Shown piece by piece: positions 3,020 through 22,620 of a stretch of 64,000 nucleotides of DNA. The translations under genes were made by a program, and so were the position numbers. Source of the stretch: a virus; the IMG/VR virus record IMGVR_UViG_3300003690_000003, positions 1 to 64,000 of that record; one strand, written 5' to 3'. The notes beneath the pieces are model-generated. The model was given only the letters and a program-made list of their open reading frames with translations, did no database searches and had not been told where the DNA came from. Position 1 is the first letter of the stretch. Each line of letters starts with the position of its first letter.

Positions 3020-3078
3020 AGTATACCCCAGGTGGGGCTAGATTGCAAGCGTTTAGATTTTATTCTCAAATAAAAGTT
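3020..3078 (-). promoter_or_regulatory. sigma70 promoter plus palindromic box
   Basis: TTGCAA-17-TATACT; box 3055-3078. Confidence 0.75.
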
Positions 3079-3154
3079 AGGTTCTCTAACTCCATGATAT
3101 TGTTAAGGACGGGGGCGCGGGCCTGGAGCGGTGGCCCACAACCCCCTATTATCC

Positions 3155-6263: not shown

Positions 6264-6464
6264 CTAAGTACCTGATTTTACAGGTATTTCTTGCGCCAGT
6301 TCCAGATACCTATGCTTGCGGTCGTATTCCCCGCTGTGCTTAGGATTCTTCGTCCAGTAAATGTTGATCATATCCCCCATCCAGGGGTCGGGCGCGTACG
6401 CTAGAACGATGCCAATATCTTCTGCACCGGGGTACGTCCACCGAACAAGATCACCGGGTTTCAT
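6264..6464 (-). CDS. GDLV-family small protein
   Basis: MKPGDLVRW...IGIVL...INIYW...YLELA; ATGA overlap. Confidence 0.75.
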   Translation of the reverse strand: MKPGDLVRWTYPGAEDIGIVLAYAPDPWMGDMINIYWTKNPKHSGEYDRKHRYLELAQEIPVKSGT

Positions 6465-6655
6465 TTTGCGCGGCTCACAACGATCCAATGGTCGGGCGCG
6501 GCCATTTCAGGCCCGGACGTATCAAAAAACTGAATCAGAATTCTATCTAAAATCGACAGGGAGGTGATATCCATAACGAGTGCCAACGGCGGCGGCGCAT
6601 CGGGATCACCGCGATAATGTTTCAGTGTAACTAAATCACCTACTTGAAAGTTCAT
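6461..6655 (-). CDS. GDLV-family small protein
   Basis: MNFQVGDLVTL...IVVSRAK. Confidence 0.75.
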   Translation of the reverse strand: MNFQVGDLVTLKHYRGDPDAPPPLALVMDITSLSILDRILIQFFDTSGPEMAAPDHWIVVSRAK

Positions 6656-6818
6656 TGATAACCTCTAAGCCGTCCTGGGAGACAACCTCTGTACCGTCTG
6701 TGAAAAAAACTACCCAGCACCTTATGATACGTCCATATACTTTGATCAGCACTCCGACTTCGCCCATACTATATCGAGGACCAAAGCCGGTTGTTTTTAC
6801 AAGATCACCGATTTTCAC
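6636..6818 (-). CDS. GDLV-family small protein
   Basis: MKIGDLVK...VGVLI...LEVINE. Confidence 0.78.
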   Translation of the reverse strand: MKIGDLVKTTGFGPRYSMGEVGVLIKVYGRIIRCWVVFFTDGTEVVSQDGLEVINELSSR

Positions 6819-6984
6819 TTACTAGCTCCAAGGCGTCGGCATAAGTCCAGCGAAGATCGTCAAGGTGATTGACACGAGACGACCATAGGCCGATATTGTA
6901 ACTCTGCTGGCAGACGCTAGCGACGATCCAGAGGTGCGCTTTCTTGCCGTTGCGTTTGAATCTTACGAGATCACCGATTTTCAC
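6805..6984 (-). CDS. GDLV-family small protein (59 aa, below ORF-track cutoff)
   Basis: Manual translation MKIGDLVRFKRNGKKAHLWIVASVCQQSYNIGLWSSRVNHLDDLRWTYADALELVSENR. Confidence 0.78.
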   Translation of the reverse strand: MKIGDLVRFKRNGKKAHLWIVASVCQQSYNIGLWSSRVNHLDDLRWTYADALELVSENR

Positions 6985-7159
6985 TGATTACCTCTAGCTC
7001 TCTTCTGGGGTGCGAACTCATGCAGTTATCATCCAGGCCACTGCCATCAATCCAATGAATCACTTGACGTTCGTCAGTGCCCGGTATCTGCCGAACAACG
7101 ATGCCGAACCAGTCTGCCCAACACGGATTGTTATAAACCACCAGATCACCGATTTTCAT
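6971..7159 (-). CDS. GDLV-family small protein
   Basis: MKIGDLVVY...FGIVV...VIHW...LEVISENR. Confidence 0.8.
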   Translation of the reverse strand: MKIGDLVVYNNPCWADWFGIVVRQIPGTDERQVIHWIDGSGLDDNCMSSHPRRELEVISENR

Positions 7160-7361
7160 TAGTTGCTTCTCGCAAGTAGTTGCTGTTTATCTGCACCACG
7201 TTGCCGGTTCTTACGTTCTGCCCCAACACGAAACCGTCGTAGCACTTACTTTCGCTAGCGGGGAGAAGTAAATACAAGTCACCGAGACCGGCCCGGGGGT
7301 TCCCGGTACTTCGCACCAGCATGCCAGCTTGCACCTGATCTCGTCGAAGATAAACGCTCAC
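7146..7361 (-). CDS. GDLV-family-like small protein
   Basis: GTG start in GTGA overlap; VQAGMLVR...EATNENR. Confidence 0.6.
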   Translation of the reverse strand: MSVYLRRDQVQAGMLVRSTGNPRAGLGDLYLLLPASESKCYDGFVLGQNVRTGNVVQINSNYLREATNENR

Positions 7362-7507
7362 CAGTCCCGCCGCCCCTTGTGCTTCGGGTGTCGAGCATCC
7401 TTGCCGCTCCCCTTGCCAGAACCCTTGCGGGCCTTGTTCTTGTGCTTCCCTGCTCCCCGGTGGTTCCAGGCAGCGAGCGCAATCAGGTTTCGTCCGTTTC
7501 GCTTCAT
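7358..7507 (-). CDS. small basic protein
   Basis: MKRNGRNLIALAAWNHRGAGKHKNKARKGSGKGSGKDARHPKHKGRRDW, start 9 nt after -10 box. Confidence 0.6.
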   Translation of the reverse strand: MKRNGRNLIALAAWNHRGAGKHKNKARKGSGKGSGKDARHPKHKGRRDW

Positions 7508-7516
7508 CGTGCTTAT

Positions 7517-7575
7517 AGAATACCACGGGCGACGGGTCAAGTCAAGGGTGAAAACTTTATTGTCAAATAAAAGTT
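7517..7575 (-). promoter_or_regulatory. sigma70 promoter plus box
   Basis: TTGACT-17-TATTCT-9-ATG; box 7553-7575. Confidence 0.78.
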
Positions 7576-7726
7576 AGAGGGTGCGGGTTCTCTTCGGTCC
7601 CCGCTGCCTAGCCTCCTGGCAACTTGTATTCGTAAGAGCAATCACGGAAGTGTGATCCTTTTTATAAGTCTCTTACAGGGATTCAGGAGAGGCGTTGAAT
7701 CCCGCTTAATATAATACCCTCTAACT
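7572..7726. ncRNA. candidate structured non-coding RNA
   Basis: Intergenic; 11-bp terminal inverted repeat plus nested helices (GTAAGAG/CTCTTAC, GGGATTCA/TGAATCCC, ATCAC/GTGAT, GCGGG/CCCGC). Confidence 0.5.
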
Positions 7727-8345
7727 ACTTAACATTCTTGCGCTTTTTCGCTTTCTTCAAGTCGCGTTCTTCGCAGATTACTGGAGTAGCCGAACCAATG
7801 GGGATCACCTCGTAACGCTTGCCGCCTCTGGCGTGTGTCAACACCTCGGGAAGTGCCCGTAGAATCATCGCAGGCTTGCCGCCCAGACCGTAGCTCACGC
7901 GGGCCGCTTTCCGAAACTCGACCATGCTTGCGGCTGCGAACTTTGGTTCATCCAGTGAGTTCGTCAAGACCGCTTGCGCGTACTTATTGCCAGTGATCGC
8001 GCTATACTGCTTCTCTGTTGGAACCCACTCGGGATCTCCCATCGCGCTGGAAACAATACTTTGAAAATATCCGTTGCGATAGTAGTAGGCTGCAACGATT
8101 TGCAATCGTTGTGCCTTGTCGGCATCCCACACTTCTTCCCAATCCTTGTTGGCTGCAAGCACTTTGTCACTGTAGTTACCCTCGATCTCTTCGAGGATGT
8201 CGGTCTGTCGCGGGGAGAGGTTTCGCCCTTCCTGCGCTTGATCTCTCAGAGACGAGGCAAAGCCAAAATCCCAGGAGTTTTCATCTTTGATACGCTCGAT
8301 CAGGTTCTCAAGTCGCTGGATCATCTTGTCTCCGGTGTTGTCCAT
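7725..8345 (-). CDS. hypothetical protein
   Basis: 206 aa, leaderless start; LSPRQ helical N-terminal part and SH3-like C-terminal part. Confidence 0.7.
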   Translation of the reverse strand: MDNTGDKMIQRLENLIERIKDENSWDFGFASSLRDQAQEGRNLSPRQTDILEEIEGNYSDKVLAANKDWEEVWDADKAQRLQIVAAYYYRNGYFQSIVSSAMGDPEWVPTEKQYSAITGNKYAQAVLTNSLDEPKFAAASMVEFRKAARVSYGLGGKPAMILRALPEVLTHARGGKRYEVIPIGSATPVICEERDLKKAKKRKNVK

Positions 8346-8351
8346 ACTCTA

Positions 8352-8410
8352 ATTATGCCTGAATCGAAGAAGAAAGTCAACCCTCTAAACTTTATTCTCA
8401 AATAAAAGTT
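8352..8410 (-). promoter_or_regulatory. leaderless sigma70 promoter plus box
   Basis: TTGACT-17-CATAAT-6-ATG; box 8388-8410. Confidence 0.8.
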
Positions 8411-8699
8411 ATGCGGGCCAAAGGGGCGCACTGTTGCGGAATACCGTGGGGTGCATCACTTCGTTAGCATGACGCTTCGCCTTGTTTACATGGGTCGAAG
8501 TTGTGACAGAATGAAAGCATCCACCGGGCGCGGTGAAGTCGCCCACGACGACTAGCCCGCCAGAAGTGCGGTGAGCGATCTTCGCGCCATACGAGAGCAA
8601 CTCGCGCCCGTCGCTGCTCAGGTTGCCAGTGTGACTGATCGCCCTTTCACCTCGGGCGAAGGCGGCCACTACTTTATCATTCTTAACTGTATCAAACAT
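8409..8699 (-). CDS. hypothetical phage protein
   Basis: LLSYGAKIA...SVTTSTH motif; GGAG SD upstream. Confidence 0.65.
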   Translation of the reverse strand: MFDTVKNDKVVAAFARGERAISHTGNLSSDGRELLSYGAKIAHRTSGGLVVVGDFTAPGGCFHSVTTSTHVNKAKRHANEVMHPTVFRNSAPLWPA

Positions 8700-8700
8700 T

Positions 8701-8955
8701 TTAACTCCTTGAAATCACACGGATTTCGCTTAGGTATTGGACGCTCCGAACGTCGGGCCAAGTGATATCATAACACCGGCTCCCTCGCGGGGTGTCAACA
8801 TGTTGAGCCGCCGTGGTGTAGGACAGCCCATCGTATAGATTGGAGTGGACTGGGTCTAGCTCACGGATCTTGTGGACAACACCCACCTGACCACGATCAC
8901 CATCGATCTTCATCTTTACCAGATCGCCTACGCGGGGGATAAGTTCCTCATTCAT
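8701..8955 (-). CDS. GDLV-family small protein
   Basis: PRVGDLVK...VGVV...DITW...IRVISRS; leaderless. Confidence 0.75.
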   Translation of the reverse strand: MNEELIPRVGDLVKMKIDGDRGQVGVVHKIRELDPVHSNLYDGLSYTTAAQHVDTPRGSRCYDITWPDVRSVQYLSEIRVISRS

Positions 8956-8961
8956 GCTTAT

Positions 8962-9020
8962 AGAATACCATGTGCCGGGTTATAAGTCAAGCACCAAAAC
9001 TTTATTCTCAAATAAAAAAG
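8962..9020 (-). promoter_or_regulatory. leaderless sigma70 promoter plus box
   Basis: TTGACT-17-TATTCT-6-ATG; box 8998-9020. Confidence 0.8.
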
Positions 9021-9090
9021 ATTATGTTTTAAGTTGTGGATATTACTTCTAAAAACTCGGCCAACTCGACACTCGTTTCGCGCCCGACTT

Positions 9091-9378
9091 TCATCTTACG
9101 ATCTCCATCCGTCCATCCTGTAGCGCATCGTCGAAAGTTTGCGGGGTATGCTTACAAATCTCCGGCTCGCCTATCCAATCAACCGCAAAATACTCGTCTG
9201 CAAAATCCATCGGATGCTCACGCCCGCAATCTACAAGATCGTGGCAATCGGCGCGGTGCGTGTGAGGGCAATCGGTACAAGTCGGCAGTGGCACAGACAG
9301 AACAATCCCAAGATCGTCGTCGCCAGAGTCGTCGTCATTCCACCGAAGTAAAGTTCCGATGTCAATGGTTTGTTTCAT
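9091..9378 (-). CDS. GDLV-family small protein with Cys/His insert
   Basis: DIGTLLRW...LGIVL...CTDCPHTHRADC...AVDW...MEIVR. Confidence 0.7.
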   Translation of the reverse strand: MKQTIDIGTLLRWNDDDSGDDDLGIVLSVPLPTCTDCPHTHRADCHDLVDCGREHPMDFADEYFAVDWIGEPEICKHTPQTFDDALQDGRMEIVR

Positions 9379-9599
9379 CCTATGACCTCCAGTTGTCGCT
9401 GATAGATGGATTCTTCTAGTCTGTCGGGTGAATGTTCACTAACTTCGCCCTCTGTCGCCCACGCGATACTATAACATCCCTGCCAGTCCTCACCGGGCAG
9501 CCCCACAACAATCCCAATATCATCTATATCTTCGTCGCGCATTTCGTCGCCGTGCCAAAGAACCAACATTCCAATTCTCAACTCACTGTGGGTTGGCAT
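9375..9599 (-). CDS. GDLV-family small protein
   Basis: LRIGMLVLW...IGIVV...SIAW...LEVIG. Confidence 0.75.
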   Translation of the reverse strand: MPTHSELRIGMLVLWHGDEMRDEDIDDIGIVVGLPGEDWQGCYSIAWATEGEVSEHSPDRLEESIYQRQLEVIG

Positions 9600-9813
9600 A
9601 AGACAAAATCTCCACAGAATCGCGGCGAACGTACTCTAGCCCTGAGTGTCCCTCCCAAGGCACCGCGAACAGGCGAACCCAAATATGAATGCCATAAGTA
9701 TCCACTATCAGGCCGACGGCGCCCTCAAGAACGATGTGAACTTGCAGAGTCTGTAGAGGACCGAGAATCAGCTTCACTACATCGCCCAACCGTGGCTTTT
9801 TACGTCGCTCCAT
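9583..9813 (-). CDS. GDLV-family small protein
   Basis: RLGDVVK...VGLIV...VEILS; leaderless. Confidence 0.75.
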   Translation of the reverse strand: MERRKKPRLGDVVKLILGPLQTLQVHIVLEGAVGLIVDTYGIHIWVRLFAVPWEGHSGLEYVRRDSVEILSYANPQ

Positions 9814-9819
9814 GATTAT

Positions 9820-9870
9820 AGAATAGCATGGGAGGGCTGCGATGTCAAACTTTTATTTGAATATAAAGTT
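9820..9870 (-). promoter_or_regulatory. leaderless sigma70 promoter plus inverted box
   Basis: TTGACA-17-TATTCT-6-ATG; box 9848-9870. Confidence 0.8.
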
Positions 9871-9871
9871 C

Positions 9872-10069
9872 TCACCGGGCTGCACTTACAACCTCAAATT
9901 GGTGACTGCTATCTGCAACAATCGTGCCATCAGGCCAGCGAACGTGAATAATATCTGTCCAGCCCTCCGGGGGGTACTGGCTCGCGGCTCGGTGCACCTC
10001 ATACACCAGACCGACCAAATCAATATCCGATATCTCCTGGTCGTACCTCACCAGATCACCGATGTTCAT
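9872..10069 (-). CDS. GDLV-family small protein
   Basis: MNIGDLVRY...VGLV...HVRW...FEVVS. Confidence 0.78.
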   Translation of the reverse strand: MNIGDLVRYDQEISDIDLVGLVYEVHRAASQYPPEGWTDIIHVRWPDGTIVADSSHQFEVVSAAR

Positions 10070-10223
10070 TTAGCAACTCCAGTGCCTCCCGTGCAAGCCA
10101 ACGAATCCTAGAGTCTCTCAAAAATCGCACACGGACTTCCGATTCTTTATGAGCAACCGCAATAACGAGCGCGGGATTCCCGCGACAGGGACCACCGACG
10201 AGCACAAGATCACCGATTTTCAC
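10056..10223 (-). CDS. GDLV-family small protein
   Basis: GTG start in junction repeat; MKIGDLVLV...LELLNEHR. Confidence 0.75.
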   Translation of the reverse strand: MKIGDLVLVGGPCRGNPALVIAVAHKESEVRVRFLRDSRIRWLAREALELLNEHR

Positions 10224-10416
10224 TGAGTAACTCCAAGTTATAATCGTTGTGCCAGAATGTTGTTTTTGCGTCAAACCACGCAACGGCGTAAGAAATCGCG
10301 GGGGAGTCTCCGCTGCAACCGTCGCGGGGTCCGCCCACAATGATTCCTGTGTCGCGTCGAGCGAAAGGCCGAGGGCTCTCCTCTGCGTGCCACTTTACCA
10401 AGTCACCGATTTTCAC
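10210..10416 (-). CDS. GDLV-family small protein
   Basis: MKIGDLVKW...TGIIV...AVAW...LELLSENR. Confidence 0.8.
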   Translation of the reverse strand: MKIGDLVKWHAEESPRPFARRDTGIIVGGPRDGCSGDSPAISYAVAWFDAKTTFWHNDYNLELLSENR

Positions 10417-10612
10417 TGACTACCTCAAACTTCCAGTCGCTTGTGCGGAATATTCCATCATCGTCCCCAAAGTTAAGGAGGATAATTCCATCAGGGTCGC
10501 GCATTTCGCCATCAAAGCCCAACTTGGTTACAACACCAATCTGGGTGTAATCGTCGACGCTTACATTCCACTTTGCGAGTGGGGTTACCTTTACCAAGTC
10601 ACCGATTTTCAT
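10403..10612 (-). CDS. GDLV-family small protein
   Basis: MKIGDLVKV...IGVV...FEVVSENR. Confidence 0.8.
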   Translation of the reverse strand: MKIGDLVKVTPLAKWNVSVDDYTQIGVVTKLGFDGEMRDPDGIILLNFGDDDGIFRTSDWKFEVVSENR

Positions 10613-10817
10613 TTAGCAACTCCAACGCGCTCGTCGCAAGTCGGTGAGTGTAACTAAACTGAGGGAAACAAACTGCGCGTCGAGACCCACCCAAATCTTT
10701 GGTGATGATCCCCAACTCGTTCTCGATATGATATTCCATGTTCTCGACACAGTTGGTGCTGACATTGAATCGGCCACCGGGCTGCCAGAGGCAGCGTACA
10801 AGATCACCGATTTTCAT
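10599..10817 (-). CDS. GDLV-family small protein
   Basis: MKIGDLVRC...LGII...LELLNENR. Confidence 0.8.
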   Translation of the reverse strand: MKIGDLVRCLWQPGGRFNVSTNCVENMEYHIENELGIITKDLGGSRRAVCFPQFSYTHRLATSALELLNENR

Positions 10818-10830
10818 TTGAAAATAAAGT

Positions 10831-11415
10831 TTAGGCGTTTTCGAGTTGCTTCTTGGTCAGTTCTGCGATCTTCAACTCTGCCTTGCGCTTGAAATTGTCC
10901 CCATAGTGGTAACGCTCATCCACTTTCAACACGGAGATTTTAATGGCAAGGTTCAAAGAACAGTTAGGATGCTCGACGAATCGTGTCAGGTGATAGCCGT
11001 GTGAGCTTTCGTTTACAGGGATATCGTCATAAATCTGTTCTAGCAACGCGGTGGGAGTCTTATTGGCTCCGATGTTCTCGCCCCAGTACCTCTGGCCCAG
11101 GAACGCACTCATCATGCGCCAGTATGACCGACTGTTCCTCTTGAAATACTTGTTATAAACGTCCCAATAGGTCTGTTCGTCAATATCGATTGCTCCGGTT
11201 CGCAAAAGCTCAGACTTAAAGACGTAGCCGCGCTGGTTCCACAGAATCTCGGCAGCTTCCTGGGTGATCTTAGGGTTGCAGGCAAGATAACTCTTTGCCA
11301 GCCTATAGGGATGATTAGCGATTGCCAGTTGCGTTTCGGCATCGGTAAATCGGTTCTTTGCGAGTCCGGTCAACTCGCTGTTATACATTTCTGTGATTTT
11401 ATCTGCGAAGGACAT
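10831..11415 (-). CDS. helical repeat (LRV-like) hypothetical protein
   Basis: Recurrent LAxN/ANHP/ACNP/EHPN motifs. Confidence 0.55.
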   Translation of the reverse strand: MSFADKITEMYNSELTGLAKNRFTDAETQLAIANHPYRLAKSYLACNPKITQEAAEILWNQRGYVFKSELLRTGAIDIDEQTYWDVYNKYFKRNSRSYWRMMSAFLGQRYWGENIGANKTPTALLEQIYDDIPVNESSHGYHLTRFVEHPNCSLNLAIKISVLKVDERYHYGDNFKRKAELKIAELTKKQLENA

Positions 11416-11446
11416 TCTGTCTCCAGGTGGTGTTTATCGTATCTAT

Positions 11447-11498
11447 AGAATAGCATGGATAACCGATGCCGTCAAGAGTTTTCTTTGAAAATAAAGTT
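11447..11498 (-). promoter_or_regulatory. sigma70 promoter plus inverted box
   Basis: TTGACG-17-TATTCT; box 11476-11498. Confidence 0.75.
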
Positions 11499-11746
11499 AG
11501 TTGTCTATGTCAGCGCAATTGCTGTGCTTTTCGACGGTATCTTCCATAACTTCGCGCAACAGCGCGTCAATACTGAAATATTCTTCATCAGTCTCATCCC
11601 ACAACACGCCGATCATCCCTAGCATTTCTTCCACTTCGGGTGGAGGCAGACCTTCTTCCCGTCGCGTTGCAGTTAGGCGGTCGAGTGCGGTGCTTCCAAT
11701 GTTACTCATTAGACTCATCATGTCGAATTCTCCATCGTACATACAT
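11497..11746 (-). CDS. acidic hypothetical protein
   Basis: About 81 aa ORF preceded by ACTACTTA motif; ATG read directly at 11744-11746, ORF track ends at 11742, so start is approximate. Confidence 0.45.
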
Positions 11747-11768
11747 TATAAGTAGTTTTCATTATCTG

Positions 11769-12020
11769 TCAAATCCTATTTCTCTTGCGTCGATACTTTT
11801 TATTCGGTACGAGGTAAACGTCTGTCACGGCGCCATCATCGAGACACTCATAAAAGCCCTTCGTGGCAATCCGCGAGATTGCGGCCGGAATAAGCCCATG
11901 CCCAACGCGAGACACCACCTTATAGTAAAACTTGCCATTCTTCTTGTCCACGATAATGCCCAAACCTCCAGCGGTCTTGAACATATCACCAACGCAAAGA
12001 TGATACTCGCACACGATCAA
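11769..12020 (-). CDS. GDLV-family small protein
   Basis: LCVGDMFK...LGIIV. Confidence 0.65.
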   Translation of the reverse strand: MIVCEYHLCVGDMFKTAGGLGIIVDKKNGKFYYKVVSRVGHGLIPAAISRIATKGFYECLDDGAVTDVYLVPNKKYRRKRNRI

Positions 12021-12193
12021 TCCAACTCTGAAAGAATTTCATAGTCGGTAAGCATTTGCCACTCTTTCCAGTCAGCAAATCTGACCCACTCCTGGGCGGC
12101 ATCGCACTTGTATTCTGTAACAATCTTCATAATGCCAGTCCCGTTAATCTTTCGGAGCAGCGCACCAATAATAACCATGCCGCGAGGTTTCAT
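12017..12193 (-). CDS. small hypothetical protein (GDLV-family-like)
   Basis: MKPRGMVIIGALLR...YEILSE; GGAG SD. Confidence 0.55.
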   Translation of the reverse strand: MKPRGMVIIGALLRKINGTGIMKIVTEYKCDAAQEWVRFADWKEWQMLTDYEILSELD

Positions 12194-12201
12194 TCTGTCT
12201 C

Positions 12202-12468
12202 CTAGTAACTGATTGAAGTGTGGGGGTAAATATCCCAAAATCCATCGCCCACACAAGTAATGTCAGCGGAGTCTTCGCCCACTTTAACAAACCTGAAATG
12301 CTCGGAAGAAGCAGAACCCGCGCCCGAGTCGTGATCGGGGGGATCTTCCTCAAACTCCCACGTATCGCAACCAGCGTCGTCAACAAACTTTTCGATAAGA
12401 TCGATAACCTTGTATTCCGGGCCGACTGTGCCGCTGTACCACTTGATACCATCCCATACTACCAGCAA
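12202..12468 (-). CDS. hypothetical protein
   Basis: 88 aa acidic ORF, FRFVKVGED motif. Confidence 0.55.
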   Translation of the reverse strand: MLVVWDGIKWYSGTVGPEYKVIDLIEKFVDDAGCDTWEFEEDPPDHDSGAGSASSEHFRFVKVGEDSADITCVGDGFWDIYPHTSISY

Positions 12469-12677
12469 CTCCTAGAAACTACTATGAAATTTGAGGATAG
12501 GTGCATGCTGCTCCGTGATCGTGTATCGTTGTGCAGTCGAACATAATACGTGGTTCTGCTGTTGGCGTCCGTTGCTGACCATGCCTCGATCACAAGATGG
12601 GTGGCCGGCTTCGCGCCGTGTATATGCTGCTTGAACTTCACCAAGTCGCCAACTTTAATGCCGTCGTTCTTAACCAT
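12459..12677 (-). CDS. GDLV-family small protein
   Basis: IKVGDLVKF...FIVVSRS; leaderless. Confidence 0.75.
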   Translation of the reverse strand: MVKNDGIKVGDLVKFKQHIHGAKPATHLVIEAWSATDANSRTTYYVRLHNDTRSRSSMHLSSNFIVVSRSCW

Positions 12678-12683
12678 GTATAT

Positions 12684-12734
12684 AGAATACCACGCGAGGG
12701 CGCGAGAGTCAATCTTTTACTTCAAAATAAAGTT
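12684..12734 (-). promoter_or_regulatory. leaderless sigma70 promoter plus inverted box
   Basis: TTGACT-17-TATTCT-6-ATG; box 12712-12734. Confidence 0.78.
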
Positions 12735-12921
12735 CTGGATTGGAAGTCTCTGGAATCACTGACAAATCTTGTCGCACCTCCCAGGAGTCTCGACTCAAAC
12801 TCTTGTCGTCGTTCCACTGAACGAGGTACTGAAAGCGTGTCGCGTCTAGTTCGCGGACGGTATCAAGAACCGTGCCAATCGATCCGGTAAAAGAATGTTG
12901 AACTGTATCACCGATTGTCAT
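12709..12921 (-). CDS. GDLV-family small protein
   Basis: MTIGDTV...IGTV...LVQW...LSVI. Confidence 0.72.
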   Translation of the reverse strand: MTIGDTVQHSFTGSIGTVLDTVRELDATRFQYLVQWNDDKSLSRDSWEVRQDLSVIPETSNPELYFEVKD

Positions 12922-13127
12922 TTTGTATTTGCCTTCGAGATTAGGGTTAGGTTGCGCTCAAACGCCCAAGTTTGTTGGTTGCCGTCGAACCATGCAATCC
13001 AGTATGCGGGCCGCTTATAAGGGTGAACCCAGGCGCGGGCGTGTTTTTCTGTCACCGGACCAACTATAACTCCGCGCCACGCGACCGCCTGGGCATGTTG
13101 ATATTCAATCAGGTCGCCGCGTTGCAT
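12918..13127 (-). CDS. GDLV-family small protein
   Basis: MQRGDLI...RGVIV...WIAW...LTLIS. Confidence 0.75.
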   Translation of the reverse strand: MQRGDLIEYQHAQAVAWRGVIVGPVTEKHARAWVHPYKRPAYWIAWFDGNQQTWAFERNLTLISKANTK

Positions 13128-13350
13128 CTACTCTCTCCACTTCATTACTATAATACCACGATGGTTCTGTGTTGTCAACCCAAGAAATAAAAAACATTGT
13201 CACGCCCTGAGCTATCACATTAGGAAGGGGAGGATCAACTCTTGAACCAGACTGGAGGGTGGAAATATCACAGGTATCAGTCACAAGACCCAAGCCCCTC
13301 TGGCCGGAAGTGAATATATGAACGCTATAAACCAAGTCACCGACTTTCAT
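13105..13350 (-). CDS. GDLV-family small protein
   Basis: MKVGDLVY...LGLV...FISW. Confidence 0.75.
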   Translation of the reverse strand: MKVGDLVYSVHIFTSGQRGLGLVTDTCDISTLQSGSRVDPPLPNVIAQGVTMFFISWVDNTEPSWYYSNEVERVDATRRPD

Positions 13351-13544
13351 CTTGCGATCTCTAAGGCTTTTTCGTACCATAAAACAATATTTTGACTGTC
13401 ATACCAATAAACCTCAAACTCTTCCTCCGACTCTTCAAATCTTTCCGGCCCCATGCGAATAATAATCCCCATGCGTCCGTACGGACACGGAAACTCTTGC
13501 AAGTCCTCGCGCTGTTTATAAGTTACCAAATCACCGACCTTCAC
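13347..13544 (-). CDS. GDLV-family small protein
   Basis: MKVGDLVTY...MGIII...EVYW...LEIAR. Confidence 0.78.
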   Translation of the reverse strand: MKVGDLVTYKQREDLQEFPCPYGRMGIIIRMGPERFEESEEEFEVYWYDSQNIVLWYEKALEIAR

Positions 13545-13731
13545 TGATTACCCCCAGATACTTTTCTTCCCACCAGCCTTCGTTACCGCAAGTGTACCAC
13601 CTGATTTCCCAGCGTCGTTTCGCATTATTGCCAGACCACCCATCGATGGGGCCACGCACAATAATTCCATGCGAGGGCGTTGAGGGGGGACTGCCGCACT
13701 CAATGAATTCTACTAAATCACCGATTTTCAT
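13531..13731 (-). CDS. GDLV-family small protein
   Basis: MKIGDLVEF...HGIIV...EIRW...LGVISEGR. Confidence 0.8.
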   Translation of the reverse strand: MKIGDLVEFIECGSPPSTPSHGIIVRGPIDGWSGNNAKRRWEIRWYTCGNEGWWEEKYLGVISEGR

Positions 13732-13867
13732 TTATTAACTCCAAGCAAGAAGGGTGTGCCTCCGCTCTCTTTCCAGAGAAAAGCTCAATCCTCGCAGTGG
13801 CATCCCCCAAAAAAACAAGAATACCTAGTCCCCGATACGGGACTCTTACCAAACTACCGATTTTCAC
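13718..13867 (-). CDS. GDLV-family small protein
   Basis: GTG start; MKIGSLVRV...LGILV...LELINENR. Confidence 0.75.
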   Translation of the reverse strand: MKIGSLVRVPYRGLGILVFLGDATARIELFSGKRAEAHPSCLELINENR

Positions 13868-14063
13868 TGATAACCTCCAAAGTCTCGGGGCCGGTTGCAT
13901 AAATATCTGAGCTACCGGGGATCACAATATCGACCATCAGGTTGTCACGCTCAGGATGGGAAGTAATCTCATAAGGCTCGCGAATAACAATGTATAGTGG
14001 GCGATCCTCTATCGGAGTGCCCCAGCTTTCGGGCGTGAATGTTACCAAGTCACCGATTTTCAC
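13854..14063 (-). CDS. GDLV-family small protein
   Basis: MKIGDLVTF...LEVISENR. Confidence 0.8.
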   Translation of the reverse strand: MKIGDLVTFTPESWGTPIEDRPLYIVIREPYEITSHPERDNLMVDIVIPGSSDIYATGPETLEVISENR

Positions 14064-14277
14064 TTACTCGCTCCAGCATGCCTCGGCTGTGCCAATCATC
14101 TATTTCTTCGTGTTCATGGTAAGTGAGTTGGTCGTCTTCGTCTCGCCAGTGGATGCCCACTTCTTCTTCGTCGGAGTCCACAAACAACACCACTCCAAGA
14201 TCATGGTCGTGGTCGGGACTGTGACGATAGTTGAATCTCACCAGATCGCCAGTGTTTAGAACCTCGCTAATCTTCAT
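14050..14277 (-). CDS. GDLV-family small protein
   Basis: NTGDLVRF...LGVVL...GIHW...LERVSENR; leaderless. Confidence 0.78.
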   Translation of the reverse strand: MKISEVLNTGDLVRFNYRHSPDHDHDLGVVLFVDSDEEEVGIHWRDEDDQLTYHEHEEIDDWHSRGMLERVSENR

Positions 14278-14283
14278 GCTTCT

Positions 14284-14335
14284 AGCATACCATGTCAGAA
14301 GCGCAGGGTCAAGGCTTTTATTTGAAAATAAAGTT
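14284..14335 (-). promoter_or_regulatory. leaderless sigma70 promoter plus inverted box
   Basis: TTGACC-17-TATGCT-6-ATG; box 14313-14335. Confidence 0.78.
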
Positions 14336-15273
14336 TAGGCCCAAGGGGTCTTAATCTTTTCTTTCTTGTAGTGCTTCACGCACCCTCCGGGTCGGGAGTA
14401 GTCCTTTTTGAACCAGAGCGCGATGATACCGTTAGCGAAACTTTCAATAGTTCTGTTTTGCTCGGGGGGGGACTCGCCCTTAACTTGAGTCTGGAATTCT
14501 TGGCTCGTTATTTCCTGTAGTCTCTCAGTAAAAATCGCCCAATCCTTCCCCACTTTAGTTGTAGCAGCAAACAAGGCAGGATTTGCTTCGTAGATCATCG
14601 CAAAGCCGCCCAGCATGGGCTTGTTAAGCTTGTTAAGACTAGGCCACGTACCCCTAACAGTTTGGATTGATTCTTTGATAGCCTGAAGGCCCGTCGCATC
14701 ACTACCTATAAGGTTTTCCACAACGGTAAATGTTTGTGCGCTGACTCGACTACCGTGGAGGTCGCCTACGATACCACCCGGCTCGGAACAACCATAAACG
14801 TAAGCGCCACACTGTTGCATCCTGGCAACCTGCGCTTGCACTTGGGCGTCTATCTGAAACTTATGGACATACCTTTCATCGGGTGTAAGAGCCTTTGTCT
14901 TACCCCCGTTACAGTTATCGAAGTTTCTGTGATAAGTGTCCACGTCGTCTATTTCTGTAACGTAAGCCCACATGTGCGTTGCCTGTGGGAAGGTCAACCG
15001 GAACATATGTGTGGTATGATCACCGTTCATGCGTTCCAGCCGTCCCCCCGCAGCACGGATCCTGTGCACCAGCGGGGGTACATGGATGCTCCAGTCCCAT
15101 ACCCAATCGTCCGTCTGTTCATCTTTCATCTGCTTTTCTAGCTGTTTTCCCTTTGTATCTCTGTTGATCCGGGAGGGGGTGTCTACGGGGACCAGTTCTA
15201 GTTTTCCCTGCTTTCCTCTAACCTTGGGGGCGCCGGGCTTAATGGCGCATGCGCCTACAATCTTATTGCTCAT
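14335..15273 (-). CDS. hypothetical protein, possibly ParB/DGQHR-like N-terminus
   Basis: 312 aa; INR...PPLV...MNGDHT resembles the DGQH-type motif. Confidence 0.5.
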   Translation of the reverse strand: MSNKIVGACAIKPGAPKVRGKQGKLELVPVDTPSRINRDTKGKQLEKQMKDEQTDDWVWDWSIHVPPLVHRIRAAGGRLERMNGDHTTHMFRLTFPQATHMWAYVTEIDDVDTYHRNFDNCNGGKTKALTPDERYVHKFQIDAQVQAQVARMQQCGAYVYGCSEPGGIVGDLHGSRVSAQTFTVVENLIGSDATGLQAIKESIQTVRGTWPSLNKLNKPMLGGFAMIYEANPALFAATTKVGKDWAIFTERLQEITSQEFQTQVKGESPPEQNRTIESFANGIIALWFKKDYSRPGGCVKHYKKEKIKTPWA

Positions 15274-15354
15274 AATATTTATCTACCTCTTTTGCAGTTG
15301 TTGTTTGACCGTCTTTAGAGTATAACACACTTTTTGTGAAAAGTAACCCTTTTT

Positions 15355-15573
15355 TCAAAAATATTTCTTAATTATTTCAAGATGGCCTACTTCGTGGCAA
15401 TCGCGCCCCAAGGGCCAGTGAACTTCAATGGGGGTGTAGGAAATATCATTATGCGCGGCGGGAACCTCGGAGTGTTCCTTGATAACGATACCGACCGCAT
15501 CGTGATTTATGTTGGGATACCACGCGGCTACCACTCCATCGGGCGTCAGCCGCACAAGATCGCCAATGTTCAT
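15355..15573 (-). CDS. GDLV-family small protein
   Basis: MNIGDLVRL...VGIVI...EVHW...LEII. Confidence 0.78.
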   Translation of the reverse strand: MNIGDLVRLTPDGVVAAWYPNINHDAVGIVIKEHSEVPAAHNDISYTPIEVHWPLGRDCHEVGHLEIIKKYF

Positions 15574-15809
15574 GCTGCAACCGATATTACCCTGATTTGG
15601 TTTTTGGTACAATGAGAGACGCGTTCGTGCTGCATCGAGTTCCATACAAGAAACCTCGGATTTTCAAACCAACGAACAACAAAACCATCCGTTAGGCTAT
15701 AGTGAGCGTTCAAAAAGCTCTTTTCTTCAACGATGATGCCTTGTCCTTCGACATAGCCCCGCTTAGTTTCAACGAGGGAACCGACTCTATACTTGCTTTT
15801 TCGTGCCAT
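15570..15809 (-). CDS. GDLV-family small protein
   Basis: YRVGSLV...QGIIV...VVRW...IRVIS; leaderless. Confidence 0.75.
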   Translation of the reverse strand: MARKSKYRVGSLVETKRGYVEGQGIIVEEKSFLNAHYSLTDGFVVRWFENPRFLVWNSMQHERVSHCTKNQIRVISVAA

Positions 15810-15815
15810 GTTTAT

Positions 15816-15844
15816 ATCATATCATCTTTCGCTGCTGGTGTCAA
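15816..15844 (-). promoter_or_regulatory. leaderless sigma70 promoter
   Basis: TTGACA-17-TATGAT-6-ATG. Confidence 0.75.
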
Positions 15845-16151
15845 GAGGAAAATCATCCAATGCGTTCAAATAGGCCACACCGTTCGGGACTTGCCCTCGC
15901 AAGATGCCGCCGTGCTTTGCTATGACAGTGTTCACCACCTCTACGGGAACGTAAGCATACACCGTTTCGGTGGGTTCGTCGGGACGTTCGGCCCAAGGTA
16001 TAATGATTTCTTCCCGGTGGCTCGGATAACCGATTTCTACCTCCGTATACTTCTCCGCGTCGTCGGTGCGCGGATCGCAGTATGCGCCGTGGTGTCCCTG
16101 AACAGACATAAAAAATCCGTCCGCACATACTACTCTTTTATTCAGAGCCAT
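15822..16151 (-). CDS. conserved-looking phage hypothetical protein
   Basis: CADGFFMSVQ...YCDPR...VEIGYPS...VYAYVP...HGG. Confidence 0.7.
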   Translation of the reverse strand: MALNKRVVCADGFFMSVQGHHGAYCDPRTDDAEKYTEVEIGYPSHREEIIIPWAERPDEPTETVYAYVPVEVVNTVIAKHGGILRGQVPNGVAYLNALDDFPLDTSSER

Positions 16152-16168
16152 TTTCTTTCCTTTGGTAT

Positions 16169-16245
16169 TGGTAGGGCAGGCGGGACTTGAACCCGCGACC
16201 TGCGCTTTATAAGAACGCTACTCTGACCTACTGAGTTACTGCCCT
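16169..16245 (-). tRNA. tRNA-Ile (anticodon UAU)
   Basis: Acceptor AGGGCAG/CTGCCCT, anticodon arm GCGTT-CTTATAA-AGCGC, T-loop TTCAAGT, encoded CCA. Confidence 0.92.
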
Positions 16246-16412
16246 GCGCGGGGTAGATCATTTTTGAGTATTCTCTTAGGTTCGTAAGCACCGTCTAACT
16301 CTTTTTCTTGTTCTTCTTAACCTCGGGCTTCTTTTTGTCCACAGGAAACTTGTTGCCGTGCCTGTCGATTTTAATATATCCCTTATCGGTCTTAACAATC
16401 ATATAACTCTGT

Positions 16413-16691
16413 TCATTTCTTCTGGGCATTATTCTTCTTTCTACTCTCGTAGGTTTCTTTTGCCCGCCCGCCGCCGGGTGGGGTTGCCCACCCCAAGAGG
16501 TACGACCTCTGTCGGCCGTCGGCCTTCGTTCCCGTGAAATAGCGAGAGGGCCCAGCCCTCATCGCGTCAGGAGCGTTAGGCATATGCCCGGTTTTCATGT
16601 TCTCGCGGATCTCTTTGTCGGTGTTGCCATACGGCGACCACCAGCCCCCCACCGACAACTTAATCTTTCCATCTGGTCCCATTACGCTCAT
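16413..16691 (-). CDS. hypothetical protein, paralog of 17044-17313
   Basis: WWSPYGNTDKEIRENMKTGHMPNAPD. Confidence 0.65.
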   Translation of the reverse strand: MSVMGPDGKIKLSVGGWWSPYGNTDKEIRENMKTGHMPNAPDAMRAGPSRYFTGTKADGRQRSYLLGWATPPGGGRAKETYESRKKNNAQKK

Positions 16692-16693
16692 AT

Positions 16694-16939
16694 TTATCCA
16701 AGTCCATTCATTGTGGTATTAACATCACCTTGACCGGAGAGTTCAGCAATCGGCTTAAATGTCCCTCCATCCTCCGGGTGCAGCGCAGTCATAAGGGTGG
16801 GATGCGGCCCAATAATCTTGTGTAGACTGATATACCAAAAACACTGTTCCTCGGCATCCCATTTGGCAACCGCTGTATCTTCGTGGATACCAAAATAACT
16901 TAGGTTATTCTTGAGTCTACTTTTAGCAAAATATTCCAT
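16694..16939 (-). CDS. hypothetical protein
   Basis: Start moved to MEYFAK, downstream of tRNA-Leu. Confidence 0.55.
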   Translation of the reverse strand: MEYFAKSRLKNNLSYFGIHEDTAVAKWDAEEQCFWYISLHKIIGPHPTLMTALHPEDGGTFKPIAELSGQGDVNTTMNGLG

Positions 16940-16951
16940 TTTATTCCTTAT

Positions 16952-17037
16952 TGGTAGCGCGGGCGGGACTCGAACCCGCAAGCCCCACGGGCGGCAGATT
17001 TTGAGTCTGCTGTGTATACCAGTTCCACCACCGCGCC
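16952..17037 (-). tRNA. tRNA-Leu (anticodon CAA)
   Basis: Acceptor GGCGCGG/CCGCGCT, GCAGA-CTCAAAA-TCTGC, long variable arm, TTCGAGT, CCA. Confidence 0.93.
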
Positions 17038-17043
17038 AAGCTG

Positions 17044-17313
17044 TTACTTCTTTCTTTTCTCGTAAGATTCTTTTGCTTTGCCGTTGATCGCACCAATGTC
17101 TTCCAGGAAGTCAGACATCTGCTCGTCCCGTTGCCCTCTGGCGGCGCTGGCGACGACGAGGGCGATGTACGCCCGGGGCACCCGCCCGTCGGGCACATTG
17201 GGCATTTGCCCCATTTTTAGGTTCTCGCGGATCTCTTTATCGGTGTTACCGTAAGGCGACCACCAACTTCCATCTACGTAGTATACTTTTCCATCGGTTT
17301 TCATCAGGCTCAT
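17044..17313 (-). CDS. hypothetical protein, paralog of 16413-16691
   Basis: WWSPYGNTDKEIRENLKMGQMPNVPD. Confidence 0.65.
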   Translation of the reverse strand: MSLMKTDGKVYYVDGSWWSPYGNTDKEIRENLKMGQMPNVPDGRVPRAYIALVVASAARGQRDEQMSDFLEDIGAINGKAKESYEKRKK

Positions 17314-17351
17314 ATTTGCTTCCTGTGAGGGGTGTCCATCTTTCTATCTTA

Positions 17352-17588
17352 CTACAACGCAGAACGTCTGTCAAGACTTTTTTCCACTATTTTGCTCACC
17401 AACTCAAAATCATCCGTGAATACCTCGCGTGTCGATCTTCCAAATTGTACGCGGCCGATGGTATAAACGTATCCATACTTTGCGTGCTCTATAGGCCAAG
17501 AATCAAGAAATATGCCAACTTTGGGATCCCGAAGATCCCTTATAACTCCATCTTTGAACATTACGAGATCACCCGCTGAGAACTTCAT
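17352..17588 (-). CDS. GDLV-family small protein
   Basis: FSAGDLVMF...VGIF...FELVSK. Confidence 0.72.
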   Translation of the reverse strand: MKFSAGDLVMFKDGVIRDLRDPKVGIFLDSWPIEHAKYGYVYTIGRVQFGRSTREVFTDDFELVSKIVEKSLDRRSAL

Positions 17589-17757
17589 CTGCCCTGCTTA
17601 CAAGTTTAAACTCGCCGTCTATTACTTCTTTTGGAAAAAGACTTTCTTCGTTATCTCGCACTGACCGTAAATGGTAGCTATATTCTCCAACTTCCGTCAC
17701 AAGCCAGCGGATAATTAACTTTTTGTTTTCTATGATGTCGCCTACTTTAAAGTTCAT
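17569..17757 (-). CDS. GDLV-family small protein
   Basis: MNFKVGDII...FKLVSR. Confidence 0.72.
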   Translation of the reverse strand: MNFKVGDIIENKKLIIRWLVTEVGEYSYHLRSVRDNEESLFPKEVIDGEFKLVSRADEVLSG

Positions 17758-18226
17758 AATATGTGTCGGGCGTCCTCTCTATTAACAGCCGGTGACTGTA
17801 ATGATTTTGCTCGATTGCTGTTTTTCTCCTATGACACGAAGCGCATCGTGTTTCACACTTGTCAAGTTCTGCTTCAATCCGCAGCCAGCCGTAACCTTGT
17901 CCCAAAAGGCTCGATATGTCTTTATCTTTGTCGCGCATATGATCGCTCTCTAAAACGCGTGGATCTGCTTCTCCGCAATCTACACAGGGATTCTCCAAAT
18001 AATGTCGAAGGAGCTTGTGTCGATTTTCTTCGATTCGCTTTGCTTTACATGCGCCAATCTTTTTAATTTGACTTGTGCGATTCTTTTTATAATACTCTCT
18101 ATTACGCTGGTGCGTACATTGTCGGCACTGAGTTTGGTGCCCATCTTTGCGGTTGGCCGCTTTGTTATATTCGCTTAACGGCTTTTCTTGTTTACACAAA
18201 GTACATTTTTTTGATTCTGTTTTCAT
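17747..18226 (-). CDS. HNH endonuclease
   Basis: CTLC/CRQC N-terminal Zn site; CVDCGE...LESDH...CETRCASCHRRKT; starts 10 nt after tRNA-Lys. Confidence 0.8.
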   Translation of the reverse strand: MKTESKKCTLCKQEKPLSEYNKAANRKDGHQTQCRQCTHQRNREYYKKNRTSQIKKIGACKAKRIEENRHKLLRHYLENPCVDCGEADPRVLESDHMRDKDKDISSLLGQGYGWLRIEAELDKCETRCASCHRRKTAIEQNHYSHRLLIERTPDTYYEL

Positions 18227-18235
18227 AACAAAAGT

Positions 18236-18311
18236 TGGAGGGCCGGGTGGGACTCGAACCCACAACAAGAAGATTAAAAGTCTCCTACTCTGCCTGTTGA
18301 GTTACCGGCCC
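18236..18311 (-). tRNA. tRNA-Lys (anticodon UUU)
   Basis: Acceptor GGGCCGG/CCGGCCC, GGAGA-CTTTTAA-TCTTC, TTCGAGT, CCA. Confidence 0.93.
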
Positions 18312-18329
18312 ATTCATCCTTACACCCTT

Positions 18330-18358
18330 ATCGTAACACTGTTTTGGCATAAAGTCAA
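18330..18358 (-). promoter_or_regulatory. sigma70 promoter upstream of tRNA-Lys
   Basis: TTGACT-17-TACGAT. Confidence 0.65.
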
Positions 18359-18546
18359 CAGTTCTTTTTCATTTCTTTGGCTGCACTCACAATCTCTAAC
18401 CAATTGTGTGCATAGTTTTCTGTAAGATAAGGAGGCTGAAGCCACTGAATACTTATATGCCCCGTCACAGGACCTACGGCCACCACTAGTGCCAAATCGT
18501 CGCCGGCTGGATCACGAACCAAGTCACCTACTTTAAATCGCTCCAC
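18355..18546 (-). CDS. GDLV-family small protein
   Basis: FKVGDLVR...SIQW...LEIVS. Confidence 0.75.
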   Translation of the reverse strand: MERFKVGDLVRDPAGDDLALVVAVGPVTGHISIQWLQPPYLTENYAHNWLEIVSAAKEMKKNC

Positions 18547-18757
18547 TTACAACCTCAAATGGTGCATAAGGCAACTCATCCCGCCACCTATCATCATATT
18601 CCGAAGTACCGTAGTAAGGGTGCACTCCACTAAACCAGTTAATCTTTACCTTTTCAGCATTCACTTCAAGAAGAATACCGAGCCAGTTGGCGCAGTATCC
18701 CAGTCCTGGGGTAGAAGTATGTTCCTTTGAAAATCTGACCAAATCACCGATTTTCAT
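18533..18757 (-). CDS. GDLV-family small protein
   Basis: MKIGDLVRF...LGILL...KINW...FEVVS. Confidence 0.78.
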   Translation of the reverse strand: MKIGDLVRFSKEHTSTPGLGYCANWLGILLEVNAEKVKINWFSGVHPYYGTSEYDDRWRDELPYAPFEVVSGAI

Positions 18758-18951
18758 TAGTTGCTTTCCAAACCTATTTTAATGGCTTCCGCCAGCGTAT
18801 CAAAGTAATAGTAAGCCATTTCAGTGTATCCCATTGTGGGATGATACACCTTATAAAGAAGTTCGTTCTCATGGGGATCGAGGCGCTGTCCAACGAAAAG
18901 GCATATGCCCCCTGGAGTGCAGCACATCCAAATGAGATCACCGGTTTTCAC
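18757..18951 (-). CDS. GDLV-family small protein
   Basis: MKTGDLIW. Confidence 0.72.
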   Translation of the reverse strand: MKTGDLIWMCCTPGGICLFVGQRLDPHENELLYKVYHPTMGYTEMAYYYFDTLAEAIKIGLESN

Positions 18952-19093
18952 TTAGAACCTCCACTGCTTTTGGAGAAGTCCAAAAGGTTCCGTACTGTCC
19001 ATCCCACCGGACTTTTATATACAGGCCATTCGTTTCAACCACTATCCCCAGGCGCGTAGCACTATATCTTCTTACCAAATCACCAACCTTCAT
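18938..19093 (-). CDS. GDLV-family small protein (51 aa, below cutoff)
   Basis: Manual translation MKVGDLVRRYSATRLGIVVETNGLYIKVRWDGQYGTFWTSPKAVEVLSENR. Confidence 0.78.
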   Translation of the reverse strand: MKVGDLVRRYSATRLGIVVETNGLYIKVRWDGQYGTFWTSPKAVEVLSENR

Positions 19094-19260
19094 GCGCTGC
19101 TTACCTCGTTTAACTCTGCTTTGTCACACAAAGTTCTGCATCCATAATCATCAAAGCAAACCAAGTAGGCGCCATTTTTATGATCGAGAATAATAAGACC
19201 CAAGTAACCGTGCATCGCACGGTGGGGGTTTCTCAGTCTGACCAGAGATCCTACTGTCAT
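19090..19260 (-). CDS. GDLV-family small protein (56 aa, below cutoff)
   Basis: Manual translation MTVGSLVRLRNPHRAMHGYLGLIILDHKNGAYLVCFDDYGCRTLCDKAELNEVSSA; leaderless. Confidence 0.72.
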   Translation of the reverse strand: MTVGSLVRLRNPHRAMHGYLGLIILDHKNGAYLVCFDDYGCRTLCDKAELNEVSSA

Positions 19261-22389: not shown

Positions 22390-22620
22390 TTACTCATCGG
22401 AGTCAACAACTCCTTGTATTTTTTTAAGATAATGCTCCATTATTTTAAACTTCATGCCATTAAAAAACGTTACGTGCCATACGTTGCGGTCCGACTTCTT
22501 GCTCTTTTTCGCAATTCCTGTGAGAAGACCTGTTCCCTGGGGGATACCATTACCACTCTTTGCAGGATGTTCAACTATATCCCCTAGCTTCAACGGCTCC
22601 TTTTTAGAAAAGTTCACCAT
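22390..22620 (-). CDS. GDLV-family small protein
   Basis: LKLGDIV...TGLL...WHVTF. Confidence 0.65.
   Translation of the reverse strand: MVNFSKKEPLKLGDIVEHPAKSGNGIPQGTGLLTGIAKKSKKSDRNVWHVTFFNGMKFKIMEHYLKKIQGVVDSDE

Follow-up and report, generated by a model that had tools for sequence, protein, structure and literature searches.

The first 64,000 bases of the 170,861-bp virus contig IMGVR_UViG_3300003690_000003 (94% complete), hereafter the window, contain four minus-strand arrays of small genes joined to one another by a repeated junction of ~35 nucleotides. The source is a large, uncultured T4-like myophage from an aquatic setting, and the window covers its early region. These arrays probably constitute a recombination-shuffled library of small paralogous proteins in that region. 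If so, the phage can recombine its large stock of small proteins into new sets and, it appears, needs no dedicated integrase to do so. This bears on the old question of how plastic regions of phage genomes gain and reorder small genes intact, over which linkers and illegitimate recombination have been debated (PMC2839356); here, the recombination sites are seen at base resolution in natural populations. The library, with more than 1,000 small single-fold proteins, could also be screened directly for host targets.

Junction repeat and arrays

A 13-mer reported in a sequence-only reading of the window is the core of a ~35-nucleotide junction that joins genes of 50 to 80 amino acids (Table 1). 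All 10 exact copies lie where that reading placed them, on the minus strand, and the variant copies it listed are all correct. When up to two mismatches are allowed, 19 matches are found, against 2.3 +/- 1.5 expected, and none of 100 shuffles reaches 19. Outside 6.4-19 kb, no exact or one-mismatch copy occurs in the 170,861-bp contig.

The proposal that the repeat is read in two frames also proved correct. Each junction supplies the LEVISENR tail of the upstream protein, a GGAG Shine-Dalgarno (SD) sequence at about -11, the start codon at 0, the upstream stop codon at +11 to +13 and the MKIGDLV beginning of the downstream protein, so that adjacent genes overlap by 14 nucleotides. This overlap is found in 913 of 1,112 coupled pairs among the matches listed. 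The 12 spacings between copies had been reported correctly, and 10 are 1 mod 3 as claimed, but this regularity is not independent evidence, since a 14-nucleotide overlap of intact genes produces it arithmetically. The two spacings of 194 reflect coupling by a 4-nucleotide or 1-nucleotide overlap. The junction is degenerate: pairs of copies have a median of 23.5 of 35 nucleotides in common, and the longest perfect run between copies has a median of 10 and a maximum of 24 nucleotides. It encodes strand 5 of one protein barrel and strand 1 of the next and, because the same ~35 nucleotides also hold the SD, start and stop, is the only sequence common to otherwise unrelated units. The arrays consist of promoterless single-gene cassettes in tandem behind one promoter.

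Cassette exchange within the phage population

We gathered a conspecific set of 33 contigs from other samples, which are 97-100% identical to the window where aligned and were found by protein identity rather than by DNA pattern. Junctions are crossed intact 72 times in these contigs, and many contigs keep the order seen in the window, which validates its assembly. In eight distinct events a contig switches to an unrelated cassette, and every switch ends at -14 to +30 relative to a junction start. This zone makes up 24% of the aligned array DNA (0.24^8 is about 1e-5).

The switches affect all four arrays. A different cassette lies upstream of 18757 in contig L280 (array 1), the cassette after 13350 is replaced in L274 (array 2), and in array 4 the switch lies at the 7159 junction in L270 and at the 6984 junction in L273. 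In array 3, L281 has lost exactly one cassette, 10612-10403, across 23 identical nucleotides, and L285 and L290 have other neighbours. In both L287 and L288, contigs of two separate samples, the unit that ends at 10210 is linked across 14 identical nucleotides with the one that starts at 13731, a cross-array join that places the 10416 cassette of array 3 before the 13731 cassette of array 2.

Cassette exchange across the clade

Pattern scans of viral and metagenome collections detected at least 243 loci with such arrays. Identical, syntenic arrays in close relatives had been named as the outcome adverse to exchange; the arrays of relatives are in fact not syntenic. Blocks of homology start at -20 to +9 in 95 of 169 cases and end at +10 to +29 in 129 of 185. 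A neighbouring cassette is non-homologous in 22 of 158 cases when the cores are at least 97% identical, in 33 of 64 at 90-97%, in 96 of 126 at 80-90% and in 497 of 505 below 60%. At identities of at least 97%, alignments break at 26 of 109 junctions versus 4 of 75 other gene boundaries, and have 5.3 ends per kb at junctions versus 0.53 in cassette cores.

In the nearest relatives, flanking core genes are syntenic while the arrays are not: no junction-joined adjacency of the cassettes shared with the window is retained, and two shared cassettes are in reverse order in genome G003. Genomes G001 and G006, which are independent and mostly 80-90% identical, differ by single-cassette moves, and a single cassette distinguishes locus L015 from L017, with 20 identical nucleotides at the join. 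Among 23 genomes of 158-293 kb chosen from the pattern matches (17 of them at least 90% complete), every one contains the same junction core, 1 to 25 times. Four of these core-bearing genomes encode RecA and DnaE proteins only 37-38% and 41-43% identical, respectively, to those of the source phage, and cassette families common to different lineages have about 50-60% core DNA identity.

The conspecific and clade comparisons together bear out the suggestion that units are added, deleted and reordered by crossovers at the junction with frame and coupling kept. Judged from aligned sequences, we regard shuffling at the junction as very well supported and would be surprised if it were wrong.

Codon choice in the junction

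Amino acid constraints in the two overlapping frames, which had been raised as a possible full explanation of junction identity, do not explain it at the nucleotide level. For these counts, one pattern-matching junction per locus was left out to limit ascertainment. In 4-nucleotide and 1-nucleotide overlaps, where the upstream frame imposes no constraint, AAA is used in 154 of 174 junctions, RTC in 107 of 174 and GGT in 135 of 174. First genes behind promoters encode the same peptide, with AAA in 9 of 22, RTC in 2 of 22 and GGT in 11 of 22 (Fisher p 2e-6, 3e-6 and 0.009). At the site that is synonymous in both frames (Val in one, Arg in the other), GTC outnumbers GTA by 482 to 53, so that C occurs in 482 of 535 cases, whereas 40% is expected from core codon use. 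In cross-type pairs, an Ile/Val variant of the junction goes with the genome in 8 of 10 cases and not with the cassette family; its distribution among loci is overdispersed (chi2 252, against a permutation maximum of 159), in a set where three loci were found with an Ile-type pattern.

In loci L116, L003 and L004, compared with the window cassettes at 7159 and 6818, a single cassette family carries junction-type codons in internal positions and other codons after a promoter. This suggests that the promoter unit has its own homogenised half-junction.

These data bear on the idea that the junction is a by-product. In that case its uniformity would stem from common descent and from signals for translation (SD, coupling or re-initiation, low structure); shuffling would be real but not the reason for its upkeep, and breakpoints would fall there only because diverged paralogues have no other homology to one another and joins made elsewhere are purged. 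SD, start and stop do explain many fixed positions, the downstream half of the junction can presumably pair with the 16S tail, and other gene boundaries also break often at 80-97% identity. The expected outcome is moreover the same as under a junction maintained for exchange, and selection for recombinability and passive homogenisation are not told apart by the data. However, synonymous junction sites remain uniform, even at 4-nucleotide overlaps, while cores have diverged beyond recognition at the DNA level; the Ile/Val variant follows the genome; and the same core persists in the phages with distant RecA and DnaE. We therefore find a mere by-product improbable, though of the alternatives it fares best.

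A family of SH3-like proteins

The DNA between junctions is, as had been noted, dissimilar from unit to unit. The encoded proteins are nonetheless homologous, so the units cannot be seen as unrelated spacers: the cassettes are paralogues of one SH3-like (KOW/Tudor-type) barrel. The loci comprise at least 1,914 mini-genes. Clustered at 40% core identity, the matches listed yield at least 1,150 families, of which 833 have a single member. At P<0.001, a profile built from cores stripped of the terminal motifs recognises 1,092 of the 1,760 other cores, versus 13 shuffled ones. The units are coding and 145-214 nucleotides long; 555 of 566 are open, and the ratio of nonsynonymous to synonymous substitution rates (dN/dS) in cores is 0.19-0.22 at all distances, which argues that purifying selection maintains the proteins.

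Two cassettes folded with AlphaFold2 (Table 1) are predicted to form a five-strand barrel of about 55-65 residues in which a short helical turn precedes the last strand. The same barrel and turn occur in SH3-like small beta-barrels such as the KOW domains of NusG and Spt5, Tudor/PWWP, PsaE, NdhS, R67 DHFR and YorP. The Z scores of 7-8.4 cover nearly the whole chain, but the matches are tied, at 8-23% identity, and pick out no single family. Neighbours in the ESM Atlas are DsrB, R67 DHFR and SH3-C. Pfam matches, including those to KOW, Tudor and DfrB, are weak and scattered (at most 3 of 70 members), Pfam and PHROG name none of the cassettes, PDB sequence matches are weak (E >= 0.012), and Foldseek searches of viral structures return nothing at E <= 0.001. 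The SH3-like fold by itself gives no function for the cassettes.

With a profile of the full-length cassette, 36 frames are detected in the genome, all on the minus strand and all within 201-22,883. The frame at 654-1361 has a C-terminal copy of the cassette domain (E 0.003). A conserved 206-amino-acid gene at 7725-8345 has a tail that appears SH3-like by eye, and matches no protein family.

A second repeat at early promoters

A further repeat, absent from the sequence-only reading, is a ~23-nucleotide AT-rich box present in 12 copies between 3056 and 14335. It is a quasi-palindrome rather than a GC-rich stem-loop terminator, and most copies lie just upstream of the -35 element of sigma70-type early promoters. 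The junction itself contains no sigma70-like early promoter; the separate box precedes such promoters. The first genes of arrays appear to be leaderless, since their starts lie 5-9 nucleotides after the -10 box. The box may be an operator or UP element. Its exact form is matched by only 4 stretches in IMG/VR, which suggests that it is lineage-specific. Promoter-led modules are also reordered among relatives.

The asymmetry of the box is reversed from the copy at 9020 to that at 9870, with no change in the strand of the genes. At 10797-10831, a box remnant is joined to a junction start codon, and the -35, the -10 and the first gene are missing. This fusion, which is also present in conspecific contigs L281 and L282, looks like a deletion through a short A-rich match. 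In the region 7146-7540, a called 126-amino-acid frame is more likely to begin at 7361 as a degenerate 71-amino-acid cassette. Its probable coupling partner is a small, strongly basic gene without a leader (7507-7358), whose DNA shows 84-92% conservation in relatives.

Recombination mechanism and alternatives

Crossovers likely occur by general short-homology recombination, over roughly 14-25 identical nucleotides, through UvsX and gp32, replication-linked repair or template switching; a role for UvsX is our conjecture from gene content. T4 UvsX joins DNA at minihomologies of a few identical bases (PMC8262927), and segmental amplifications in T4 end at 6-10 bp microhomologies (PMC9391042). A RecA/UvsX gene is present in the source genome and in all 23 related genomes. 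Polymorphisms up to -2 are linked to the upstream cassette, and from about +17 onwards linkage is to the downstream one. In chimeric junctions, the inferred crossover intervals are +1 to +5, +4 to +16, +16 to +19 and -12 to -6, and do not all overlap, and swap partners resemble each other more than random junctions do. These two features fit homology-directed crossovers over 14-25 nucleotides.

Recombination could involve two sites of one genome or the genomes of co-infecting relatives. When relatives co-infect a cell, a single ectopic crossover at a junction, combined with a single ordinary one between the two genomes, would yield insertions, deletions and moves, so circles are possible but not required. 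Repeated exchange would homogenise the junction. The promoter-box repeats might form a second tier that shuffles whole transcription modules.

The phage could express the barrels early as a panel of binders, each combining a constant scaffold with variable loops, to inhibit host proteins or to act as decoys for them; the targets might be factors of defence, transcription or translation, and cassette turnover would then track host change. This anti-host role is a weaker proposal, which we hold with no more belief than doubt. We suggest still more tentatively, and doubt on balance, that the junction is an evolved, enzyme-free cassette site within the coding sequence of the scaffold, and that distant aquatic phages (RecA 37% identical) share a pool of thousands of SH3-fold binder genes, an antibody-like repertoire directed at the defences of the host or its expression machinery. 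In that event, crossing over at the joint would yield correctly translated proteins.

The earlier statement that no dedicated integrase is needed fits family searches of the genome and its relatives, and its rival is an unrecognised phage enzyme or a host integrase that cuts the junction core and moves cassettes as circles, as in integrons. The switch of linked polymorphisms does centre on the invariant core (about -2 to +17), single cassettes do move between arrays, and the region encodes several conserved proteins of unknown function. However, tyrosine and serine recombinases, ERF, Rad52 and RecT were not found in the source genome (PF00589, PF00239, PF04404, PF04098 and PF03837), and PF00589 was also not found in the 23 relatives (positive controls 14 of 14). 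In addition, six junctions folded as DNA, two of them on both strands, show no significant hairpin (z -1.5 to +1.5), and the inferred crossover intervals do not all overlap. Site-specific exchange is accordingly unlikely, and more so than a by-product. Mis-joining of contigs at the repeat by assemblers, which could mimic swaps in contigs that come from short-read metagenomes only and among which no cluster at >=85% identity has two alternative neighbours each in two loci, is very unlikely, given that identity at joins (14-23 nucleotides) is at or below usual k-mer sizes, that one join appears in two samples (L287, L288), that order differs between diverged, independently assembled genomes, and that the window order is reproduced in other samples (L265, L277).

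Several observations weigh against a shuffled library with the junction as its exchange site. Four breakpoint events fall inside cassettes, between alleles of one family (L285 twice, L286/L289 and L288), and L275 departs at -14 into non-cassette DNA near a contig end. At 80-97% identity, ordinary boundaries break nearly as often as junctions (0.82 versus 0.88), so the whole region is plastic. The codon counts are not phylogenetically independent, and promoter-first genes are an imperfect control because they look leaderless; leaderless starts initiate differently, so translation effects may contribute to the codon difference. Crossover mapping covers 9 junctions only, with proxy parents, and all data are assembled metagenomic contigs.

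Relation to known systems

The closest precedent is the shuffling of promoter-early stem-loop (PeSL) cassettes and linkers in T4-like phages. PeSLs, found in the T4-type phages RB49/phi1, PST and nt-1, are non-coding promoter-terminator units in which each cassette is its own transcription unit and the cargo is unrelated (PMC2839356, PMC4122927). In both systems, a large myophage has a plastic region where small unknown genes are inserted, deleted or replaced between short repeats, no integrase has been found, and general phage recombination has been proposed. The promoter-box repeat is the direct analogue here, yet it is AT-rich and not a GC stem-loop. The junction differs in that its ~35 nucleotides are doubly coding and carry SD, start and stop, and in that the cassettes it links are promoterless, overlap-coupled and of one fold. 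Excised circles have been demonstrated for PeSLs, whereas our data are assembled contigs.

Botstein/Campbell linkers and the T-even internal protein (IP) loci likewise have conserved boundaries that allow small accessory genes to be exchanged in place (PMC2839356). These boundaries are regulatory or intergenic, and are not known to include a dual-frame junction or a single-fold library of more than 1,000 families. The joining of DNA at very short identities proposed here resembles minihomology recombination in UvsX-encoding T4 (PMC8262927, PMC9391042). The T4 microhomologies are chance and scattered, whereas here they recur at every gene boundary, and joins therefore give intact genes.

The likeness to integrons and CRISPR arrays that had been pointed out is architectural; membership in either class is rejected. 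Integron arrays use IntI and attI/attC sites, and hold tandem promoterless single-gene cassettes behind one promoter, drawn from a large pool. The arrays share these cassette features and the variable order, but neither an integrase nor an attC-like hairpin was found, the crossovers mapped in 9 junctions with proxy parents give no evidence of a fixed point, and the site is inside coding sequence. The arrays are not CRISPR arrays, as their units are coding and under selection (dN/dS ~0.2) and the repeats are degenerate. We found no description of the junction or cassette family in a literature search that covered few subscription papers. A dual-frame junction, in which the overlap of two protein ends is combined with translation signals, is a design not found in the literature searched.

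Table 1. Arrays, junctions, exchange points and related features of the window
Feature	Position	Strand	Detail
Array 1, five coupled SH3-like mini-genes	18355-19260	-	starts 19260, 19093, 18951, 18757, 18546; leaderless sigma70-type promoter, -35 at 19295
Array 2, eight mini-genes	12709-14277	-	starts 14277, 14063, 13867, 13731, 13544, 13350, 13127, 12921; promoter -35 at 14312
Array 3, five mini-genes	9872-10817	-	starts 10817, 10612, 10416, 10223, 10069; only a promoter-box remnant, fused to first start codon
Array 4, degenerate 71-aa unit (7361), then five starts	6264-7361	-	starts 7159, 6984, 6818, 6655, 6464; promoter -35 at 7545
Junction variant	19073-19107	-	4-nt overlap
Junction	18931-18965	-	14-nt overlap
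Junction core	18737-18771	-	1-nt overlap; switch point in L280
Junction	14043-14077	-	14-nt overlap
Junction	13847-13881	-	14-nt overlap, TAG stop
Junction	13711-13745	-	14-nt overlap; switch point in L287/L288
Junction	13524-13558	-	14-nt overlap
Junction	13330-13364	-	4-nt overlap; switch point in L274
Junction core	10797-10831	-	fused straight to promoter-box remnant
Junction	10592-10626	-	23 identical nt in common with next junction; deletion end in L281
Junction	10396-10430	-	deletion end in L281
Junction	10203-10237	-	switch point in L285, L287, L290
Junction	10049-10083	-	14-nt overlap, 1 mismatch
Junction core	7139-7173	-	switch point in L270
Junction	6964-6998	-	switch in L273, homology ending at +30
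Junction	6798-6832	-	14-nt overlap
Junction variant	6444-6478	-	4-nt overlap
Switch positions	L270 7158; L273 6954; L274 13331; L280 18757; L281; L285 10209; L287/L288; L290 10224
AT-rich box, 5' ends	3078, 5305, 5672, 6228, 7575, 8410, 9020, 9870, 10831, 11498, 12734, 14335	.
Family frames outside the four arrays	201-416, 8701-8955, 9375-9813, 12459-12677, 15355-15809, 17352-17757, 22390-22865	-	cassette profile
Folded cassette, predicted five-strand barrel	6971-7159	-	AlphaFold2 pLDDT 82; Spt5 KOW (4zn3) VIA Z 8.2, rmsd 3.0, 58 aligned
Folded cassette, same predicted barrel	10210-10416	-	AlphaFold2 pLDDT 84; 4zn3 VIA Z 8.4, rmsd 1.7, 56 aligned
UvsX/RecA-like recombinase, candidate engine	52820-53929	-	PHROG 97, E 1.7e-57
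gp32-like single-strand DNA binding protein, putative UvsX partner (the usual one)	56114-56896	-	PF08804, E 2e-13

Phage and genomic setting

Profile searches identify UvsX-like, gp32-like and exonuclease genes in the genome, and frames like those of DnaE, GroEL, sheath, capsid and baseplate proteins can be picked out by eye. No cultured relative was found by blastn with the arrays and tblastn with one cassette (0 matches in 50,697 phage records); for RecA, the closest match among the phage records searched is at 33%. Locus searches seeded by proteins, with two flanking genes, gave no matches. Over the first 23 kb, small genes follow one another on the minus strand, with numerous promoters of sigma70 type (42, versus 18 in shuffles) and 13 terminator-like sites (versus 20 in shuffles). 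GC content is 54-57% in the first 6 kb versus 40-49% in the core. Nine matches in bacterial genome bins (L246-L254) carry labels that disagree, and most of them resemble phage DNA binned in error. The L253 match lies in a scaffolded chromosome of WOR-3; the locus includes an N gap, and the array there adjoins ATP-synthase-like genes.

Other genes in the window include a MoxR-type AAA ATPase adjoining a DUF2201 metallopeptidase/vWA gene (1676-4225), which are conserved and syntenic in relatives. An HNH-like frame, recognised by eye at 17747-18268, overlaps a tRNA-Lys; it is absent in conspecific contig L279, which has a different tRNA-like sequence at this position. Two paralogous basic genes of ~90 amino acids (16413-16691 and 17044-17313), 82% identical over 79 nucleotides, adjoin tRNA-Leu and tRNA-Ile. 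The 285-amino-acid frame at 56928-57785 has a glycine-rich start that resembles FtsZ/tubulin by eye, and matches nothing in Pfam or PHROG. Outside the window, the source contig (G000) contains, by eye, a 1051-amino-acid frame like a fused Mre11/Rad50 nuclease (about 95655-98810) and a block of sugar-pathway and glycosyltransferase-like genes (about 139900-154100).

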